Source of the DNA: a virus
Taxonomy: Duplodnaviria; Heunggongvirae; Uroviricota; Caudoviricetes
DNA: 27,323 bases
Virus record (IMG/VR): IMGVR_UViG_2693429713_000014
Reading direction: 5' to 3' (one strand)
Part shown: positions 1,425-26,576 of the stretch, in pieces
Layout: the number at the start of each line of letters is the position of its first letter
Numbering within the stretch: the first letter of the stretch is position 1
Made by a program: the position numbers and the translations under genes
The notes under the pieces: model-generated
What the model saw: only the letters and a program-made list of their open reading frames with translations
What the model was told of the DNA's origin: nothing
The model's database searches: none

Positions 1425-1476
1425 AGGGTTTTATATAAATATGCTCGATATGCTATTAATAGTACCTACATAAATA

Positions 1477-1523
1477 AAACAACGGGCGTGTTATACGCCC
1501 GTTGCAATATTAAACACATGTAG
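1477..1523 (-). terminator. Intrinsic terminator hairpin downstream of the icd 3' fragment (repeat copy 2)
   Basis: Stem aacgggcg / cgcccgtt (1481-1488 and 1496-1503) followed on the minus strand by GTTTTATTTA. Sits just after the icd-fragment stop at 1527-1529. Confidence 0.55.
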
Positions 1524-1526
1524 TGA

Positions 1527-1694
1527 TTACATGTTCTTGATGATCGCATCACCAAATTCTGAACATTTCAGCAGTTTAGCGCCTTCCATCAGACGCTCGA
1601 AGTCATAGGTTACGGTCTTCGCATTGATTGCGCCTTCCATACCTTTAACAATCAGGTCTGCGGCTTCAGTCCAGCCCATATGGCGTAACAGTAG
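1527..1694 (-). pseudogene. icdC: 3' fragment of isocitrate dehydrogenase gene (icdC-like), prophage attachment-site remnant
   Basis: Minus-strand translation gives [54 protein letters not shown]-stop, matching the Icd C-terminus. There is an in-frame stop just upstream at 1695-1697 and no N-terminal part. Confidence 0.85.
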
Positions 1695-2135
1695 TTAGAT
1701 GGTTCATATACAACCGCATGATAAATAAAAATAATCCTATAATTTTATTGTAAATCAACTGGCTTTTATCTTTCCCCTAACCTATTGATTATCAATGTAT
1801 GTTTTTTGGTTTTGATAACCGTTTTAGAGGGCAAAAACAAGTGCCTGTACCTATCAGCCCCTTCACGGCAAAGGGATTTTAAATCATGCGTGTTTTCACA
1901 AACTATCAATGGCTTAACTAAATTTTTCGCCAATAACGTACGCTGTGAGTGAGAGGTGGATATGAAGTTACACACTCCCGGAAAATAAAGAATTGAGCGT
2001 TATCTCATGCTATTAATGAAAAGTGTTTGCTTAATAGATTACATATAACTATGATTCAAGCCCAATTAAAGTCGTGTGTCTTTGGCTTAAATTGGCAAAC
2101 AAACAATCAAGTCAAGAATATAAAGGAACTATTCA

Positions 2136-3104
2136 ATGAATAAGAATTATAAAACGTTTAAACTTGAACTATGGGAGAAGTTTAAGCATCAATGTGCTTA
2201 CTGTGGCACTAAACTTTATGAACCATTGATGGCGGATGTTGATCGTTTTTTCCCAAAATCAAAGTATACTGACTTCCAAGATGCTACAGACAACCTGCTC
2301 ATCGCTTGTAAGGCATGTAGCATGATTAAAAAAGATCAGTTTCCTCTCGATGAAAATGGCAAACCATTACTTCTAAATCCTTTAAATGAAAGTTTTTCAG
2401 AACATATAAAACAAAATAAAAATGGATATTTAGAAGGTTTAACTGAGCGAGGACATGCGACTATAGATATATTACAGTTGAATAGACCTTCATTAATTGA
2501 ACAGCGCATTCTAGATGTTATTGATATGCAGTACTCTGATGATCGAACGCTATCTGAACGAGATGTCTATATGACATTCCAAAATAGTATGCAGAACGCC
2601 ATAAAACTAAATGATGCTCAGTTAAAAATTGATAGCACTTTACAAATACAAATGTCGTATATGCTATATGCCAATACAATAACTTCCTTGGAAACATATT
2701 TATGTGACAGATTTATTTCCCTAATTCATGGTAGCCAAACTAATTTGAGAAATTTTGTTGAAACCTTCAAAGATTACAATACAGAAAAATTCTTACTTTC
2801 TGAATTATTTATAAGGCATGAACAAATAGAGTCTCAAGCGATAGAGTCTATGAAGAGTGTTCTTTATCATAATCTGCCAAAAGTAAGTGGCATGTATCGA
2901 GATACCTTTGGTATTAAATTCCCTGTTTTCACAGAAGTTTATAAAAGCGTGTTAATTAGGCATGACTTAGTTCATCGAGCAGGTAAAACAAAAAATGGTA
3001 ATTTTCATAAGTTAGATTCAGAGTCAGTTAAAGATGTTATCAAAAAATGCTGTGACTTGGTTGAAAAACTAGAAAAAGAGCTTAAAGATTGTGCATCATT
3101 CTAG
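2136..3104 (+). CDS. Hypothetical protein with N-terminal degenerate HNH-like zinc-finger motif and uncharacterised C-terminal domain
   Basis: 322-aa ORF with an AGGA-type RBS. Residues 20-66 read CAYC...DVDRFFP...DNLLIACKAC, i.e. the C-x2-C ... N ... C-x2-C scaffold of HNH with Arg where the catalytic His is expected. AT-rich codon usage. C-terminal region contains R-x4-H (RHDLVH, aa 275-280). Confidence 0.6.
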   Translation: MNKNYKTFKLELWEKFKHQCAYCGTKLYEPLMADVDRFFPKSKYTDFQDATDNLLIACKACSMIKKDQFPLDENGKPLLLNPLNESFSEHIKQNKNGYLEGLTERGHATIDILQLNRPSLIEQRILDVIDMQYSDDRTLSERDVYMTFQNSMQNAIKLNDAQLKIDSTLQIQMSYMLYANTITSLETYLCDRFISLIHGSQTNLRNFVETFKDYNTEKFLLSELFIRHEQIESQAIESMKSVLYHNLPKVSGMYRDTFGIKFPVFTEVYKSVLIRHDLVHRAGKTKNGNFHKLDSESVKDVIKKCCDLVEKLEKELKDCASF

Positions 3105-3286
3105 GTAATTGCCACCAAATCGAAGGTGATCGCGCTTGCGGTCACCAAAAGTAATAAACTATTCATTCCCATTCGATCATCTGAACCAACACAATTTTAT
3201 TTAATAAAGTTGACCTACTTCATTATTTGATACCCATCCAATGTGCGCAAGGGCTGCTTCTGGCACATGGTTACCCTTGATGAGAA

Positions 3287-3417
3287 GGTAGATCACCGCC
3301 ATGGGGTGTCGGGGGCGGAGGTTCAAATCCTCTCGTGCTGACCAAAAATCCTCGAAGAACCAGCCTGTTACGGCTGGTTTTTTTTGCCTGTTTTCTGAAC
3401 GGGGAAGCAATGGGGAA
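3287..3417 (+). repeat. Direct repeat A: 3' ~58 nt of a tRNA-Pro gene (no 5' half) plus downstream terminator and flank
   Basis: 3287-3344 reads ggtag..caccgccatggggtgtcgggggcggaggttcaaatcctctcgtgctgacca: T-arm GGTTCAAATCC, acceptor 3' strand, CCA end. Matches recalled E. coli tRNA-Pro 3' portion. No complementary acceptor 5' strand upstream. Confidence 0.7.
3360..3385 (+). terminator. Rho-independent terminator within repeat A
   Basis: Hairpin ccagcc-tgtta-cggctgg followed by eight T residues. Confidence 0.6.
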
Positions 3418-3607
3418 ATTAGCTTACGGTTGACCCCACTGCGAAAAGCGCAGATTTTTATCAATGGACGTACATAGGGTAGATAAGGCACAATACTGCT
3501 TCAATGTCGTCTGATGGTATTGTAATACTAATTACATCAGATGATTTAACTAGATTAGTTCTTTATAGAAATCATTCTTGAATATTAATTGGCTGACTGA
3601 GGTTTTT

Positions 3608-4393
3608 ATGGATGAAAAATACAGAAGATTTGTTGATGAGGTTGACTTTTCAAGACAATTATTAGGCATAGGGCTCACTTCCCTAAGGAAAGCAAATTTT
3701 GCAAGTAGAGGATTGTATTTTCAAGCATTATCCGGCATCAGTTTAGGATTAGAAAGGCTTATGAAACTTTGCCTTATGCTTGATGATTATAATAAAAATG
3801 GAAAATATACATCACGCAAAAAATTAAGAGATTACGGTCATAACTTAAGCAAGTTATTCAACCTAGTCATTGAGAGAGTTGATTCTCCCTCTGGCTTAAA
3901 TGAAATTCACTACAGAGTGATGGAGTTGTTAACTAATTTTGCAAATTCATCAAGATATAGTAATATTGATTTCATTACTAATGACAACGACAATGATCCC
4001 ATGAAGCAATGGTATAATGAAATCGATAAGAGCATTTACGATGAAATATTAACAAAAAGACAAAAAAATATAATTGATAAAAAATGCGAGCAATACCGAA
4101 GCTATGGTGAAACACTGCCATGCTATGTGCTTGGATATTATGATGAAGACAGAAACCATATAAACTCTGCAGGGGATTTAAATTATTTACTTAAAAGAAG
4201 TGAAATGCTTGCTGGTTATCGCACTTTATTAGTTATTCATATCATAGAATGCATCTATAACATATTAGACTCAATGACAGTTCAAGCAAAAGATAATCAC
4301 TTCCACCATCTTGAATTAGGTCGTTTTTTTGCAACCATCATTTATGGCTCTGATAGAGACAAAATCAATAGAAAAAATTTTATCCGTATGTGA
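3608..4393 (+). CDS. Hypothetical protein (261 aa), AT-rich cargo gene flanked by the tRNA-fragment repeats
   Basis: Track ORF 3578..4393 begins with TTG. The ATG at 3608 has GAGG five nt upstream, so it is the preferred start. No recognisable family motifs. Confidence 0.55.
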   Translation: MDEKYRRFVDEVDFSRQLLGIGLTSLRKANFASRGLYFQALSGISLGLERLMKLCLMLDDYNKNGKYTSRKKLRDYGHNLSKLFNLVIERVDSPSGLNEIHYRVMELLTNFANSSRYSNIDFITNDNDNDPMKQWYNEIDKSIYDEILTKRQKNIIDKKCEQYRSYGETLPCYVLGYYDEDRNHINSAGDLNYLLKRSEMLAGYRTLLVIHIIECIYNILDSMTVQAKDNHFHHLELGRFFATIIYGSDRDKINRKNFIRM

Positions 4394-4471
4394 GACTACG
4401 AAGCGACCGACGAATGATGCTATCAACTTACTGTAGACGCATATAGGCCATCAGAATATTAGCACGACACT

Positions 4472-4588
4472 ATGGGGTGTCGGGGGGCGGAGGTTCAAAT
4501 CCTCTCGTGCCGACCAAAAATCCTCGAAGAACCAGCCTGTTACGGCTGGTTTTTTTGCCTGTTTTCTGAACGGGGAAGCAATGGGGAA
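4472..4588 (+). repeat. Direct repeat B: tRNA-Pro 3' fragment (~45 nt) plus terminator and flank
   Basis: Near-identical to repeat A over about 117 bp (atggggtgtcggggggcggaggttcaaatcctctcgtgccgacca + terminator + tgttttctgaacggggaagcaatgggga). Confidence 0.7.
4532..4556 (+). terminator. Rho-independent terminator within repeat B
   Basis: Same hairpin ccagcctgttacggctgg followed by seven T residues. Confidence 0.6.
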
Positions 4589-4790
4589 TTACAGGGGAAA
4601 AACCCCGTCAAATGTTGCCCCCGTATCGCTAGCACACAATGATTAAGTATCTTTTTCACTTTCGGAATTCATCAATTCACAAAACCATCATTCCGATTTA
4701 CCTTACATGCTCCTTTTAAATCTTTAACGGTGTGCACCACTTTTTCTAACTGCCCTATACTTTCAGTCTGACATACGGCTGGAGGTTTCT

Positions 4791-5459
4791 ATGTGTGGAC
4801 GCTTTTCACAGTCAATGACCCGTGAAGATTATCTTGCCCTTCTCGCTGATGAATCAGAACGCGATATTCCATACGATCCAGAACCCATCGGAAGATTCAA
4901 CGTAGCGCCAGGAACAAAAGTTCTGCTTCTGAGCGAACGTGATGAGCAGTTGCATCTTGATCCAGTTATCTGGGGATACGCCCCCGGTTGGTGGGATAAA
5001 CCGCCGCTCATTAATGCACGGTCTGAAACTGCTGCCACCAGCAGAATGTTTAAACCACTCTGGCAGCATGGCCGCGCAATTTGCTTTGCTGATGGATGGT
5101 ATGAGTGGAAAAAGGAAGGCGACCAAAAACAACCCTACTTTATTCACCGGGCAGACGGTCAGCCGATTTTTATGGCGGCGATCGGCAGCACACCATTCGA
5201 ACGTGGAGATGAAGCAGAAGGTTTCCTGATAGTTACAGCTGCAGCTGACAAAGGACTGGTTGATATTCACGACAGACGACCACTGGTACTGCTACCGGAA
5301 GCCGCGCGTGAATGGATGAGGCAGGATGTTGGAGGGAAAGAAGCAGCGGAAATTGCAGCCGACGGTGTTTTACCGGCTGATAAATTTATATGGCACGCCG
5401 TAACGCGTGCCGTCGGGAATGTGAAAAATCAGGGCGCCGAACTAATAACGCCAATATGA
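4791..5459 (+). CDS. SOS response-associated peptidase (SRAP/YedK family, abasic-site processing protein)
   Basis: 222-aa ORF beginning MCGRF (Cys2 nucleophile typical of SRAP) with GGAGG seven nt upstream. Length and sequence match recalled YedK-type proteins. Confidence 0.8.
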   Translation: MCGRFSQSMTREDYLALLADESERDIPYDPEPIGRFNVAPGTKVLLLSERDEQLHLDPVIWGYAPGWWDKPPLINARSETAATSRMFKPLWQHGRAICFADGWYEWKKEGDQKQPYFIHRADGQPIFMAAIGSTPFERGDEAEGFLIVTAAADKGLVDIHDRRPLVLLPEAAREWMRQDVGGKEAAEIAADGVLPADKFIWHAVTRAVGNVKNQGAELITPI

Positions 5460-5873
<414 letters not shown>

Positions 5874-5875
5874 GG

Positions 5876-6118
5876 CTAAAGTCCTCCGTTTGGATTGAAC
5901 AGCTGAAAGGTTCGGTTCTCGCCTTCCTGCGTTGATACATCGCGGAATGTTGTCACATAACATTCTATCCAATCGTTGGCCTGCTTCATCGTCCAGTGCC
6001 AGTTAACCTTACCCAGTTCCTGGACAAACCGCTGTGTGGTGACAGTCTTCCGGCCATTCGGTTCTCGCTGTATCGAAGCATGCCAGGCTATTTCAATATC
6101 GCTACGTTGTGGCATCAT
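5876..6118 (-). CDS. Small hypothetical protein (81 aa) immediately upstream of the UmuD'-like gene
   Basis: ATGATG at 6118-6113 preceded by aagaagggg RBS. Stop at 5876-5878 lies 2 nt before the UmuD'-like start, suggesting an operon. Function unknown. Confidence 0.45.
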   Translation of the reverse strand: MMPQRSDIEIAWHASIQREPNGRKTVTTQRFVQELGKVNWHWTMKQANDWIECYVTTFRDVSTQEGENRTFQLFNPNGGL

Positions 6119-6192: not shown

Positions 6193-6435
6193 ATGTTCGT
6201 GGAACTCGTTTATGACAAAAGGAATTTTGATGGCCTGCCCGGTGCAAAAGATATCATTCTGGGCGAATTGACTAAGAGGGTTCACCGGGTCTTCCCTGAT
6301 GCTGATGTCCGGGTAAAACCGATGATGACACTGCCGGCGATCAACACTGACGCCAGCAAGCATGAGAAGGAACAGATAAGCCGTACTGTTCAGGAAATGT
6401 TTGAAAAGGCTGATATGTGGCTGGTTTCAGATTAA
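6193..6435 (+). CDS. DinI-family DNA-damage-inducible protein
   Basis: 80-aa ORF ending ...MFEKADMWLVSD, resembling the DinI C-terminus (...ESADDWFVSE). RBS aagagg upstream. Confidence 0.75.
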   Translation: MFVELVYDKRNFDGLPGAKDIILGELTKRVHRVFPDADVRVKPMMTLPAINTDASKHEKEQISRTVQEMFEKADMWLVSD

Positions 6436-6563: not shown

Positions 6564-7115
6564 TCAACGCCGCGCAGGAAATTTTTTGTATAGCGTCGAC
6601 ACCCCTACATCATAAATTATAGCCACACGTTTTCTAGACTCACCTGCAGCAATCAACCTTCCAGCCTGAGCCCACTCTTCTGCGGTTAACTTTGGTCGTC
6701 TGCCGCCGATCCGACCATCTTCGCGCGCAGCAGCTAAGCCAGCCCGTGTTCGCTCAACAATAAGCTCTCTTTCCATCTCGGCAAGCGCCCCCATGACATG
6801 AAAGAAAAAGCGCCCCATTGGTGTTGAGGTATCTATACTGTCGGTCAGGCTACGGAAGTTTACCCCTCGCTCCCTCATTTCTTCGACCAGCACGACAAGA
6901 TGCCGCATGCTGCGACCGAGGCGATCCAGCTTCCATACCACCAGCGTATCGCCTTCTGATAGCGTCCTGAGCACTTTTTTTAATCCTGGTCTGTCGGACA
7001 CCTTACCGCTGATCTTATCTTCGAAAATCAGTTCACATCCTGCACACTCGAGCGCGTTTCTTTGCAATGCTGTGTTCTGGTCATTTGTTGATACGCGAAC
7101 ATAGCCAATAAGCAT
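6564..7115 (-). CDS. pin: Serine recombinase, Pin/Gin/Hin-family DNA invertase
   Basis: N-terminus MLIGYVRVSTNDQN with the catalytic Ser motif; closely resembles e14 Pin. Start set at the internal Met (7115) with a GGGG RBS rather than the track start at 7151. Confidence 0.9.
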   Translation of the reverse strand: MLIGYVRVSTNDQNTALQRNALECAGCELIFEDKISGKVSDRPGLKKVLRTLSEGDTLVVWKLDRLGRSMRHLVVLVEEMRERGVNFRSLTDSIDTSTPMGRFFFHVMGALAEMERELIVERTRAGLAAAREDGRIGGRRPKLTAEEWAQAGRLIAAGESRKRVAIIYDVGVSTLYKKFPARR

Positions 7116-7170
7116 GGTAGATCCCCCTGACAAAAGCAGGAATGATGCCATTTGCTCGTTATTTCTGCAT

Positions 7171-23875: not shown

Positions 23876-25609
23876 TTAAAGCGAGCGGATCCCATAGGAC
23901 TCAATGTGGTCAGACAGCGTGTCTTCTTTCTCGTACAGCATGGCTCTGCCAACCGCCATAATCAGCGCAACTGCACCATCGATTTTGTTTTCCGCCTGCT
24001 CTTTGACGGGCTTCACCACATCATCGTTACCCGGAATGGTTTTGCCGACCACGTTGCCAATACACCAGGTCATGATGGGATTGCCATCATGATGAAAGCG
24101 CCCCGATTCAATTGCCGCTTCCAGCTCTTTCATCGGGTCGGACATGTTGGTGTAGTTCTGAATGATAGTGATGGGGTTCAGGTCTTCATCAGCAAGGTCA
24201 TGTGACAACCCGGTCGCCCCGAAGGGGTCGATGGGTGACTCACTGACCGGACTGATTTTGTTCGCCGCTTTGGCCTCCTCGAGGATGTAGCGATAATCCA
24301 CCTCCGCACCATCGGTAACGGTCAGAACGCCCATTTCCACCCATTTCTGAAAGCGTTCGGCTGTCCGGCGATCTTCATTTTTCTCGACGCTGTACACCGT
24401 GTCATACGGTACCCAGAAACGCGGGGCCACACTGTAGTAATGCGTTTTACCGTCAATCTCGCGGGTATAAAGTCGCGCCATGCTGTTCATATCCAGCTTA
24501 CGCGCCAGGTCAAAGGCCAGAATGCACGGCTGCCCCTCGAACTGCTCAAGAGTCAGTGATTTATCCTCGCAGCTCTGCCAGCTCACCAGGTTGAAATACG
24601 CCGAACGCGCCGACACCCAGATATTGAGGTGTTTTGTTTTAAAGACGTTTGCCAGACGGGCGTTATTTTTCGCACGCTGCTGCTGACTTAACAAAAATTC
24701 GCGATAAACCGACACGCCAATATTCGGGTTAGCTTTTTCCAGCACCTGCGGGTCGGTCCAGTCATCGCCTTCGTCAACGGTATAGATGATCCCGAACAGT
24801 TCATCGTTGGGTACCGACCCGTTGAGCATCTCGATAACTTCCCGTCGCTTGTCGTAGCACGGCCCCTCAATGTTGTACCCGGCAGTAGTAATGGCCCACA
24901 TCAGTGGCTGACGTCGCGCCCCCATCCCGGTAAGCATCGTGGTGTAAAGCGCATCGGTGGCGTGCTCGTGATATTCATCCACCACCGCACAGTGGGGTGA
25001 TGAACCATCACCGGGGTTACCGATCAGCGGTTCAAACCGCGCGCCATCCTCCGGACGATTCATGTTTGAGGCGTTAACCTCAATCCCGAACGCTTCCGTC
25101 AGCATGGGTGTGCGTTTACACATCAGTCGCGCCGGGCGAAAGACTTCCCACGCCTGTTTCTCTGTCGTGGCACCGGAATACACTTCCGCGCCAAACTCGT
25201 TATCACAGGCAAAACAATACAGGGCAACACCGGCAGAGATTGCCGATTTGCCGTTCTTACGGGGGATTTCGGTATACACCTCCCGGAAGCGGCGCAGCCG
25301 GGACCCTTTATTGACCCAGCCAAACGCACAGCAGACCACAAATAGCTGCCACGGCTCCAGCGTGATGGGCATCCTCTTGAATGCCCACTCACCCTTGGTG
25401 TGCGGCAACAGCTGAATAAATTTGGCGGCCCGTTCAGCCAGGTCCTTGTCGAAGCGGTAACGAAACGACTTACTTTTTTCCGCCATCAGGTCATCAAGAT
25501 GGCGCTGGCAGGCCTGAATCACAAACTGGCAGGCCACAATCTTTCCGCGCACAACATCACGGGCATACTGATTGGCAGCATTTACGTTGGGGTAAGATTT
25601 CCGGCTCAT
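23876..25609 (-). CDS. Terminase large subunit
   Basis: 577-aa ORF with ATPase-like motifs and a C-terminal nuclease region, in the conserved position. Confidence 0.9.
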
Positions 25610-26100
25610 GACTCGATGATTTTCAGAAACGGGTTAGTGGCTTTCTTCTGCCCCGCCAGGCCAATCAGACGCTGGCGGCTGCTGGGGTCGAGTCCGAGCA
25701 TTGCCCCCGTGCTGCTCATCTCGGACTCCTGTTCTTTTTTGGCGGTCAGCTCCGGATTTTTGACCCTGCCGCCCATTGCACCGGTGATGGTGTTGCCCTG
25801 TCTGGCAATATTTTTCACGGCACGCCGCCAGAACTCATAGGCCACACACCACCGCTCAAGCACCGCAAGGTCAGTCACGCACAGCAGGCCCTGACCGCAG
25901 AGTTCTTTGGTTGTCAGTTGCCACATGATCGTGGCGAGAGGGAGATCTTCTTCAGCGAACCACTCCGGTGGCTCAACACCTTTGATGGGCGTAAAAACAG
26001 GTTCATCTTTATTCAGGGCTCGCTTGCCGGGGTTTCCGGCCAGCGCCTTGCGCGCCGTTGGCTTGGGGCGACGCCCGGAACGCCCCGCCGTTCCAGCCAT
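25606..26100 (-). CDS. Terminase small subunit
   Basis: Overlaps the large-subunit start. ATG at 26100 has AGGAG upstream; the track start at 26109 is GTG. Confidence 0.7.
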
Positions 26101-26109
26101 ATGCGGCAC

Positions 26110-26225: not shown

Positions 26226-26576
26226 TTACTTCAGCCGTTCACGGGCCGTCTTCGCCTTATGACACGGCCAGCACAAACTCTGCAGATTACTGTCGACATC
26301 AGTGCCGCCATGCGATTTAGGGTTGATGTGGTCAACGGTCTTCGCCTCACGCACCACACCAGCACGCAGACATAACTGACACAGGCCTTTGTCACGCTTG
26401 AGCACACGTTCACGGATAACATCCCATTTCGAACCATAACCGCGCTGGTGTCGGGACTGGCCCGGCTTGTATTGTTTCCAGCCTTCGCTTTTGTGGCTTT
26501 CGCAATAGCCTGACGGGTCAGTCGTGGTATGGCGGCAGCCGCGAACACGGCAGGCTTTTGGGATTCGTGATGGCAT
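26226..26576 (-). CDS. HNH endonuclease (terminase-associated, HK97 gp74-like)
   Basis: Canonical motifs CQLC...VDHINP...N...CWPCHKAK. Start at 26576 with GGAG five nt upstream. Confidence 0.85.
   Translation of the reverse strand: MPSRIPKACRVRGCRHTTTDPSGYCESHKSEGWKQYKPGQSRHQRGYGSKWDVIRERVLKRDKGLCQLCLRAGVVREAKTVDHINPKSHGGTDVDSNLQSLCWPCHKAKTARERLK

Follow-up and report, generated by a model that had tools for sequence, protein, structure and literature searches.

The gene at positions 2136-3104 (plus strand) of a 27,323-nucleotide stretch of virus DNA (IMG/VR record IMGVR_UViG_2693429713_000014; hereafter the window) encodes a protein of 322 amino acids (aa) that combines two nuclease folds. 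Residues 1-135 are an HNH zinc-finger domain of the PtuB type, the type found in Septu and in type I-A retrons, and the tail by which PtuB binds PtuA is replaced by a HEPN domain of the RiboL-PSP type that keeps every residue of its catalytic motif. Judged by its residues, the HNH site has very probably lost its catalytic activity. What might such a protein do? We favor, with moderate confidence, the view that it is a stand-alone, two-domain item of prophage cargo, a one-gene anti-phage system in which a dead PtuB-type HNH is joined to HEPN as the sole effector. The window is Escherichia coli chromosome at the site of an icd-integrated prophage. The database protein identical to the product of 2136-3104 is WP_140005924.1, and a 99.9%-identical allele, WP_032162444.1, carries the RefSeq label 'HNH endonuclease', a name that misleads for an allele with Arg at residue 37 and Ser at residue 62. 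The gene and its parts are as follows.

2136-3104, plus strand: the whole open reading frame (ORF), 322 codons and 322 aa, from the ORF call and direct reading of the sequence
2136-2360, plus strand: HNH beta-beta-alpha zinc-finger core, residues 1-75 (C20, C23, C58, C61, D36, N53, K65)
2244-2246, plus strand: codon CGT of R37, which takes the place of the HNH general-base His (PtuB H57), from a profile alignment to the PtuB chains in the PDB
2319-2321, plus strand: codon AGC of S62, at the last HNH residue position (the metal-binding Asn of 'CNxxK'), from relatives and orthologue codons
2361-2540, plus strand: residues 76-135, a conserved extension that continues the PtuB-type HNH domain; PtuB models and PDB chains align to about residue 155
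2553-3095, plus strand: HEPN domain of the RiboL-PSP-HEPN type, residues ~140-320
2958-2975, plus strand: HEPN catalytic motif R275-H-D-L-V-H280 (Rx4H), invariant in the 60 of 60 relatives that cover it

An HNH zinc finger of the PtuB type

An earlier note, made from the DNA alone, had pointed to an HNH-like scaffold with four cysteines and an asparagine, reading DVDR and SMIKK, and to an Arg in place of the catalytic His. The residues are as it described them. The cysteines are encoded at 2193-2195 (C20), 2202-2204 (C23), 2307-2309 (C58) and 2316-2318 (C61); among 62 full-length relatives all four are invariant (62/62) and N53 is kept in 60. D36-R37 is read from GAT CGT at 2241-2246, within 'DVDR', where HNH enzymes are expected to carry D/E-H, and S62 lies within 'CSMIKK' (C61-S62-M-I-K65), against C-N-x-x-K in the family. 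Searched singly against the PDB, the protein had no significant match, and a family profile was needed to obtain the PtuB alignment. With that profile, 'i-e-h-F' aligns with 'H-I-E-H57-F' of the retron-Ec78/Eco7 PtuB, which places the R37 column on H57, and C20, C23, C58 and C61 correspond to PtuB C43, C46, C78 and C90. In PtuB those four cysteines are the zinc ligands, and the substitution H57A abolishes both defense and cleavage of tRNA-Tyr (PMC12673091). Because the profile aligns the R37 column with H57, we assign R37 to the general-base position and the four cysteines to a zinc finger, and the replacement of the catalytic His by Arg proposed from the DNA is upheld.

In the AlphaFold model (predicted local distance difference test score, pLDDT, 86.6), strand 33-37 of a beta-beta-alpha unit ends with R37, and S62 belongs to helix 59-65 of that unit. 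The best structural matches of the protein are PtuB HNH nucleases; a search of BFVD folds contributed nothing further than generic HNH matches from phages. The model and the profile, the two checks that the earlier note had suggested, agree that the cysteine pattern belongs to an HNH fold and did not arise by chance. Among the features of HNH, or His-Me finger, enzymes, the beta-beta-alpha-metal fold, the structural Asn and the CxxC...CxxC zinc site are present, while the general-base His (R37) and the metal-binding Asn/His of the helix (S62) are absent. From their spacing, we take D36, R37, N53 and S62 to be the putative counterparts of Cas9 D839, H840, N854 and N863, which are metal ligand, general base, structural Asn and second metal ligand. 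The HNH domain of Cas9 is inactivated by H840A and by N863A, each alone, and we know of no beta-beta-alpha-Me nuclease in which Arg acts as the general base. Since R37 and S62 replace the general base and a metal ligand, two of three catalytic residues are substituted, and a nuclease-dead binding module, one of the two possibilities that the earlier note had offered, is the best reading of this domain.

The domain models agree with the structural assignment. PADLOC PtuB models match residues 6-156 (E = 1e-23) and the PADLOC mREase_IV model matches the HNH part (E = 2e-11). The generic HNH models recover little: the protein has no PF01844 match at E <= 1, and HNH_4 reaches only 14.5 bits. The canonical HNH that had been noted elsewhere in the window, at 26226-26576 (minus strand), has the intact VDHINP...CHKAK and scores 58 bits with PF01844; it adjoins two large ORFs at 23876-26109. 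The extension at residues 76-135 is conserved at P82, H90, G97, G106, T109, I110, L115, N116, R117, L120 and R124, and its positions are invariant or nearly so even among relatives that lack the His.

PtuB proteins (Septu; type I-A retrons Ec78/Eco7 and Ec83; TIGR02646; PDB 8ee7, 8eea, 9kjx and 9n6b) are thus the closest structural and profile matches, and share with the 322-aa protein the four-Cys zinc-finger HNH and its extension (residues 1-135 here, 1-152 in Eco7 PtuB). There are also differences. The equivalent of H57 is Arg, there is no adjacent gene for a PtuA ABC-type ATPase, and the matches stop at about residue 155, where the three-helix C-terminal domain that binds PtuA is replaced by HEPN. 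In Eco7 PtuB that domain comprises residues 153-216 (PMC12673091). Membership in Septu was considered and rejected, given the missing PtuA, the missing PtuA-binding domain and scores under the cut-offs.

The HEPN domain and its relatives

The earlier note had recognized no family in the 250-aa C-terminal region. This region now divides in two, residues 76-135 belonging to the PtuB-type HNH domain and residues ~140-320 to a HEPN domain whose Rx4H is intact. The C-terminal domain has the all-alpha HEPN fold, and both R275 and H280 are present in all 60 relatives that cover them. PF18735 (RiboL-PSP-HEPN) is matched by 14 of 33 family members at E <= 0.01 (best E = 5.7e-9), the HEPN-only relatives P0050, P0052 and P0055 exceed the Pfam cut-off for PF18735, and tblastn matches include plasmid genes annotated HEPN. 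When the C-terminal half was scanned alone with PADLOC, the sole match was RTasHEPN at E = 0.019, and we therefore find no PADLOC system that covers the protein. An exhaustive search with the profile returned 506 clusters at E <= 1e-30, only ~20 of them full-length HNH+HEPN; in the remainder the HEPN part alone is common, behind other N-terminal domains of ~100 aa. Two Flavobacteriia loci (L039, 5007-5903; L066, 4992-5867) encode the same HEPN with a CxxC...CxxC zinc ribbon from which the whole HNH motif has been lost, and may represent a further-degenerated form of the HNH-HEPN architecture.

The nearest characterized HEPN relative is the HEPN protein of DS-33, WP_014639476.1, the sequence of which was taken from the DefensePredictor supplement (PMC13092281). 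By BLASTP it aligns with residues 140-309 at 28% identity over 181 aa (E = 6e-13), and its R258, the Arg of RNHLVH, falls on R275. The two proteins share the motifs LYxNxITxLE and R-x4-H-R-x-G-K, a length of ~300 aa and the arrangement of a variable N-terminal domain followed by C-terminal HEPN. They differ in the N-terminal domain, which in the DS-33 protein is of the HEPN/RES-NTD1 type as judged by eye, with a Pfam match on HEPN-only relatives. In plaque assays DS-33 gives 2-6 logs of protection against T7, T3, Bas67 and Bas26; the system still defends without its GNAT partner, and deletion of HEPN or the substitution R258A abolishes defense (PMC13092281). The validated system PD-T4-2 (PMC9519451) has a component, PD-T4-2_B, that is labelled RiboL-PSP-HEPN in the DefensePredictor supplement (PMC13092281). 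Both DS-33 and PD-T4-2 are encoded beside a GNAT gene, unlike the 322-aa gene, near which we found no GNAT gene.

Fusions of HEPN with nuclease domains are not new in themselves. Anantharaman et al. (2013) described how, in restriction-like settings, HEPN had been fused independently with HNH/EndoVII, REase, ParB and PLD DNase domains, and defined the RiboL-PSP-HEPN family, a distant relative of AbiD/AbiF (PMC3710099). The examples named there, such as ParB+HNH(DUF2081)+HEPN and fusions to endoRNase L-PSP, differ from a PtuB-type HNH joined to RiboL-PSP-HEPN (PMC3710099). In the literature we found no description of the latter fusion, nor of a recurrent loss of the HNH His. DS-11 (CBS+HEPN), DS-38 (HEPN and zinc fingers) and AbiJ/Taranis follow the same logic, with a HEPN effector and a non-catalytic sensing or binding domain in one polypeptide; they differ in having unrelated accessory domains and another domain order, and the comparison extends to the HEPN fold only. 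The 322-aa protein is, in short, a new domain combination inside a known class, that of HEPN effectors with swappable N-terminal domains, and not a new kind of system.

Natural variation and genomic setting

How widespread is the arginine? In the His column, the 62 full-length relatives have H in 45, R, Q and N in three each, A and S in two each, C and Y in one each, and a gap in two; in the S62 column N occurs in 45 of 62 and S in eight. The closest relatives, at 83% identity, come from Serratia, Proteus and Enterobacter and keep E-H and C-N. The change from His to Arg is real in the product of 2136-3104, as the earlier note had it, and is not a property of the family, which corrects the wider sense in which it could be taken. 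Compared with the orthologues, H37R is a change from CAC to CGT and N62S a change from AAC to AGC. R37 and S62 are common to all E. coli variants and to a 97%-identical, intact protein of Citrobacter freundii, and because the Citrobacter copy still has P45, the change to T45 came later than the other two. Arg is the state of one E. coli/Citrobacter allele rather than a family trait. A second, independent change from His to Arg is found in the myxobacterium Minicystis rosea (L015, ~4941-5969; 'CVERFFPKS'), in a protein of 40% identity with the Asn of CNxxK intact. The HNH His has been lost repeatedly in this family, and the most interesting element of the finding is this recurrent, tolerated loss.

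The gene lies in an exchangeable part of its prophage, and the features around it are the following.

1527-1679, minus strand: 3' duplicate of icd, an attR remnant of an icd-integrated prophage; it marks where the gene-bearing element ends
2092-2119, plus strand: candidate promoter TTGGCA-16-AAGAAT, a consensus match not above chance
2123-2127, plus strand: Shine-Dalgarno sequence AAGGA, 8 nt ahead of the ATG, read directly from the sequence
3301-3417 and 4472-4588: direct repeat of 118 nt (99-100% identity) that consists of a 3' portion of a tRNA-Pro gene and its terminator
3578(3608)-4393, plus strand: ORF for an all-helical hypothetical protein of 271/261 aa
5460-5972, minus strand: ORF for an S24 (UmuD/LexA-like) peptidase with a threefold PASQ repeat, frameshifted according to RefSeq

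The order is iraM (1101-1424), the icd duplicate, the 322-aa gene, a patchwork containing a SRAP peptidase, the frameshifted S24 peptidase, DinI and a Pin-type invertase, and then Mu-like tail genes. Because this arrangement matches the order pinE-mcrA-icdC-iraM of e14 in K-12, we place the 322-aa gene in the e14 mcrA cargo slot. McrA, the type IV HNH restriction enzyme of e14, occupies the same slot between the Pin region and icdC/iraM and is likewise an HNH-family protein; McrA itself has an N-terminal DNA-binding domain, an active C-terminal HNH and no HEPN, and shows no sequence relation to the 322-aa protein beyond the generic HNH core. The icd-proximal end of the prophage thus behaves as an exchangeable defense slot, which in the window spans from the Pin-type invertase (6564-7151) to the icd duplicate. 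The G+C content of the 322-aa gene is ~32%, compared with ~50% in neighboring phage genes. The gene is carried by eight of 5426 complete E. coli genomes, always at one locus and at 99.9% identity; its 322-codon frame is unbroken in all eight, a single protein variant accounts for 463 contigs, and IMG/VR viral contigs hold identical copies.

We also weighed a type III (RNA) antitoxin or a retron noncoding RNA in the vicinity and rejected both, since there are no tandem repeats and no reverse transcriptase, and an Rfam scan gave only two sub-threshold, chance-level matches. At 1452-1522 (minus strand) the small RNA tpke11 matches with 26 bits (E = 0.026), below its gathering score; the match overlaps a 17-bp hairpin at 1473-1511, which lies between iraM and the icd fragment, and is probably a terminator.

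The 271-aa gene occurs in exactly the same eight E. coli genomes as the 322-aa gene, and one UniRef entry names its product 'AbiV family abortive infection protein'. The protein has no match in Pfam, PADLOC or NCBIfam, and its weak homologues lie on Klebsiella and Vibrio plasmids; a single-sequence AlphaFold2 model was unusable (pLDDT 39.8). The possibility that it is a paralogue or partner was tested with hhalign, which shows no relation to the 322-aa protein, and was rejected. The 118-nt repeat encloses only this ORF, much as the two attachment-site copies that flank a small integrated element would, and because of that bracket we regard the gene as a separate insertion. It may be a second cargo gene of Abi type. 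ARAGORN found no intact tRNA in the window. Farther along, an intact gene for a YedK-like SRAP protein (4791-5459) adjoins the S24 ORF, and DinI is encoded at 6193-6435; S24, SRAP and DinI form a cluster of SOS-related cargo.

Relatives of the gene, from species that span six phyla, occupy comparable places. A Serratia relative is flanked by primase and an integrase-type (Arm-DNA-bind) gene within a P4-like satellite, a Pantoea relative separates the cI region from xis/int in a lambdoid prophage, and another adjoins RusA and an integrase. An island of Proteus sp. CD3 (L005; segments 1-1345 and 2568-5267) holds the orthologue together with a canonical Septu pair (PtuA/PtuB), an 899-aa NACHT protein and an integrase; the PtuA/PtuB pair is 4.6 kb from the homologue, so that a stand-alone PtuB and a PtuB-HEPN fusion occur together in one Proteus island. 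In Vibrio parahaemolyticus (L008-L010) the homologues stand in an array of single genes and short cassettes with recurring ORFs of ~29 aa between them, which looks like a set of chromosomal integron cassettes with putative attC repeats. When the ORFs lying within 5 kb were compared all against all, for 14 full-length loci of the six phyla, no conserved neighbor emerged, and the window contains no PtuA gene. The gene is a single-gene module of mobile elements. The earlier note had allowed that the protein might match a housekeeping family; none was matched, all of the contexts being mobile elements or defense islands.

Proposed function and competing explanations

The genomic contexts and the homologous DS-33 HEPN protein are the grounds on which we propose a one-gene anti-phage system. 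By analogy with other HEPN enzymes, the HEPN domain would act as sole effector, a dimeric, metal-independent RNase, and the outcome would probably be abortive infection. The zinc-finger HNH scaffold and the extension at residues 76-135 may be kept for nucleic-acid binding, sensing or regulation. Because PtuB enzymes target tRNA-Tyr or DNA, tRNA and phage nucleic acid are candidate ligands of the HNH module. Relatives that keep the His may cut with both nucleases.

Several points weigh against this proposal. From the sequence and its homologues we infer the RNase activity, dimerization, trigger and anti-phage phenotype of the 322-aa protein. The NCBIfam PtuB and TIGR02646 models score 32.6 and 17.3 bits, under cut-offs of 150 and 52.15, and PF18735 gives 16.4 bits (E = 0.009), below its gathering score of 28.4 bits. 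The DNA around the gene is a patchwork that includes fragments of tRNA-Pro and an S24 gene with a frameshift. In the literature we found no study of the protein's accession or of any HNH-HEPN relative; HNH1, an HNH candidate cloned in the DefensePredictor study, has no DS number (PMC13092281). Finally, 73% of relatives keep the His, and the HNH nuclease may matter for the normal function of the family, in which case the E. coli allele may be impaired.

Is the E. coli allele, in that case, a crippled one? If both nuclease sites were needed, H37R and N62S, together with P45T, would be inactivating, and the allele would be decaying and persist by hitch-hiking with its prophage. The His in 45 of 62 relatives, all the closest included, speaks for this. 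Among the columns conserved at >=85%, the protein differs from the family in just three, R37, T45 and L308, the first two of which are in the HNH core. The degraded surroundings, the disruption of a copy in a metagenome-assembled genome (P0006) and the rarity of the gene, in eight of 5426 complete genomes, fit decay as well. Against it stand the frame that is intact in all eight genomes and on hundreds of contigs, the sharing of R37 and S62 with the diverged but still intact Citrobacter allele, and at least seven other His-less lineages that retain the cysteines, the 76-135 region and the HEPN motif, which points to tolerated, functional forms. The ratio of nonsynonymous to synonymous substitution rates (dN/dS) also argues against decay: in pairwise comparisons with the Serratia and Proteus orthologues, which cannot isolate the E. 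coli branch, it is 0.27-0.33 in the HNH domain, 0.19-0.25 in the middle and 0.18-0.21 in HEPN. These values of ~0.2-0.3, with pairwise identity, point to purifying selection in every domain without a decay specific to HNH. We consider a crippled allele unlikely. A variant HNH site that remains active, which was the earlier note's second possibility and would make the protein a DNA or tRNA nuclease like PtuB, fares worse. PtuB-type HNH domains do cut DNA or tRNA-Tyr (PMC12673091), D36, N53, K65 and the zinc site are intact, and Arg has recurred in Minicystis rosea. Other relatives have Q, N, A, S, C or Y in this column, or are gapped there, so no common chemistry has been preserved in it; H57A abolishes the activity of PtuB, and the metal-binding Asn is lost as well. 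Taken with the Cas9 mutants and the lack of a precedent, to our knowledge, for Arg as general base, this leaves an active variant site very improbable.

Could the protein instead depend on a partner? A two-component or toxin-antitoxin arrangement with the 271-aa neighbor at 3578-4393, with a PtuA-like ATPase encoded elsewhere or with an antitoxin would accord with the shared distribution of the two E. coli genes and the AbiV family name in one database, with the 4.6 kb between the Proteus homologue and a PtuA/PtuB pair, and with the fact that PtuB normally needs PtuA (PMC12673091). The 14 full-length loci from six phyla have no neighbor in common, however; the 271-aa gene is 473 nt away within its own 118-nt repeat bracket, a separate insertion; HEPN stands where the PtuA-binding domain would be; and the DS-33 HEPN protein functions without its partner. 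A partner-dependent protein thus seems to us a slim prospect. Little better placed, and improbable in our judgment, is a role outside immunity, as a factor of mobile elements in RNA processing, addiction or competition between elements. HEPN domains are also found in toxin-antitoxin and RNA-processing proteins (PMC3710099), and the evidence for defense is all contextual. The contexts are nevertheless classic defense hotspots, namely a P4 satellite, the e14 mcrA position and a NACHT/Septu island, and the nearest characterized HEPN relative is a validated defense protein.

Returning to the one-gene anti-phage system that we prefer, a broader evolutionary reading may be put forward tentatively, as a possibility that we would not yet call likely. 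The PtuB-type HNH may have been exapted repeatedly, in several phyla, into a silent recognition module for tRNA or phage nucleic acid that gates or aims a HEPN RNase. The R37/S62 allele would then be a natural 'dead-HNH' endpoint of a family in transition from dual nuclease to sensor-effector.

If the proposal is correct, it would add a compact one-gene architecture, a PtuB-like HNH joined to HEPN, to the known anti-phage systems, and it would link the PtuB of Septu and retrons with the RiboL-PSP-HEPN proteins of PD-T4-2 and DS-33, which are otherwise studied separately. The variation in the His column amounts to a natural mutagenesis series, in which 73% of relatives retain the His and the loss has taken at least eight forms, against a zinc finger and a HEPN site that stay constant. 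Such a series could show what a PtuB-type HNH contributes beyond cutting, and bears on how PtuB recognizes tRNA-Tyr or DNA.

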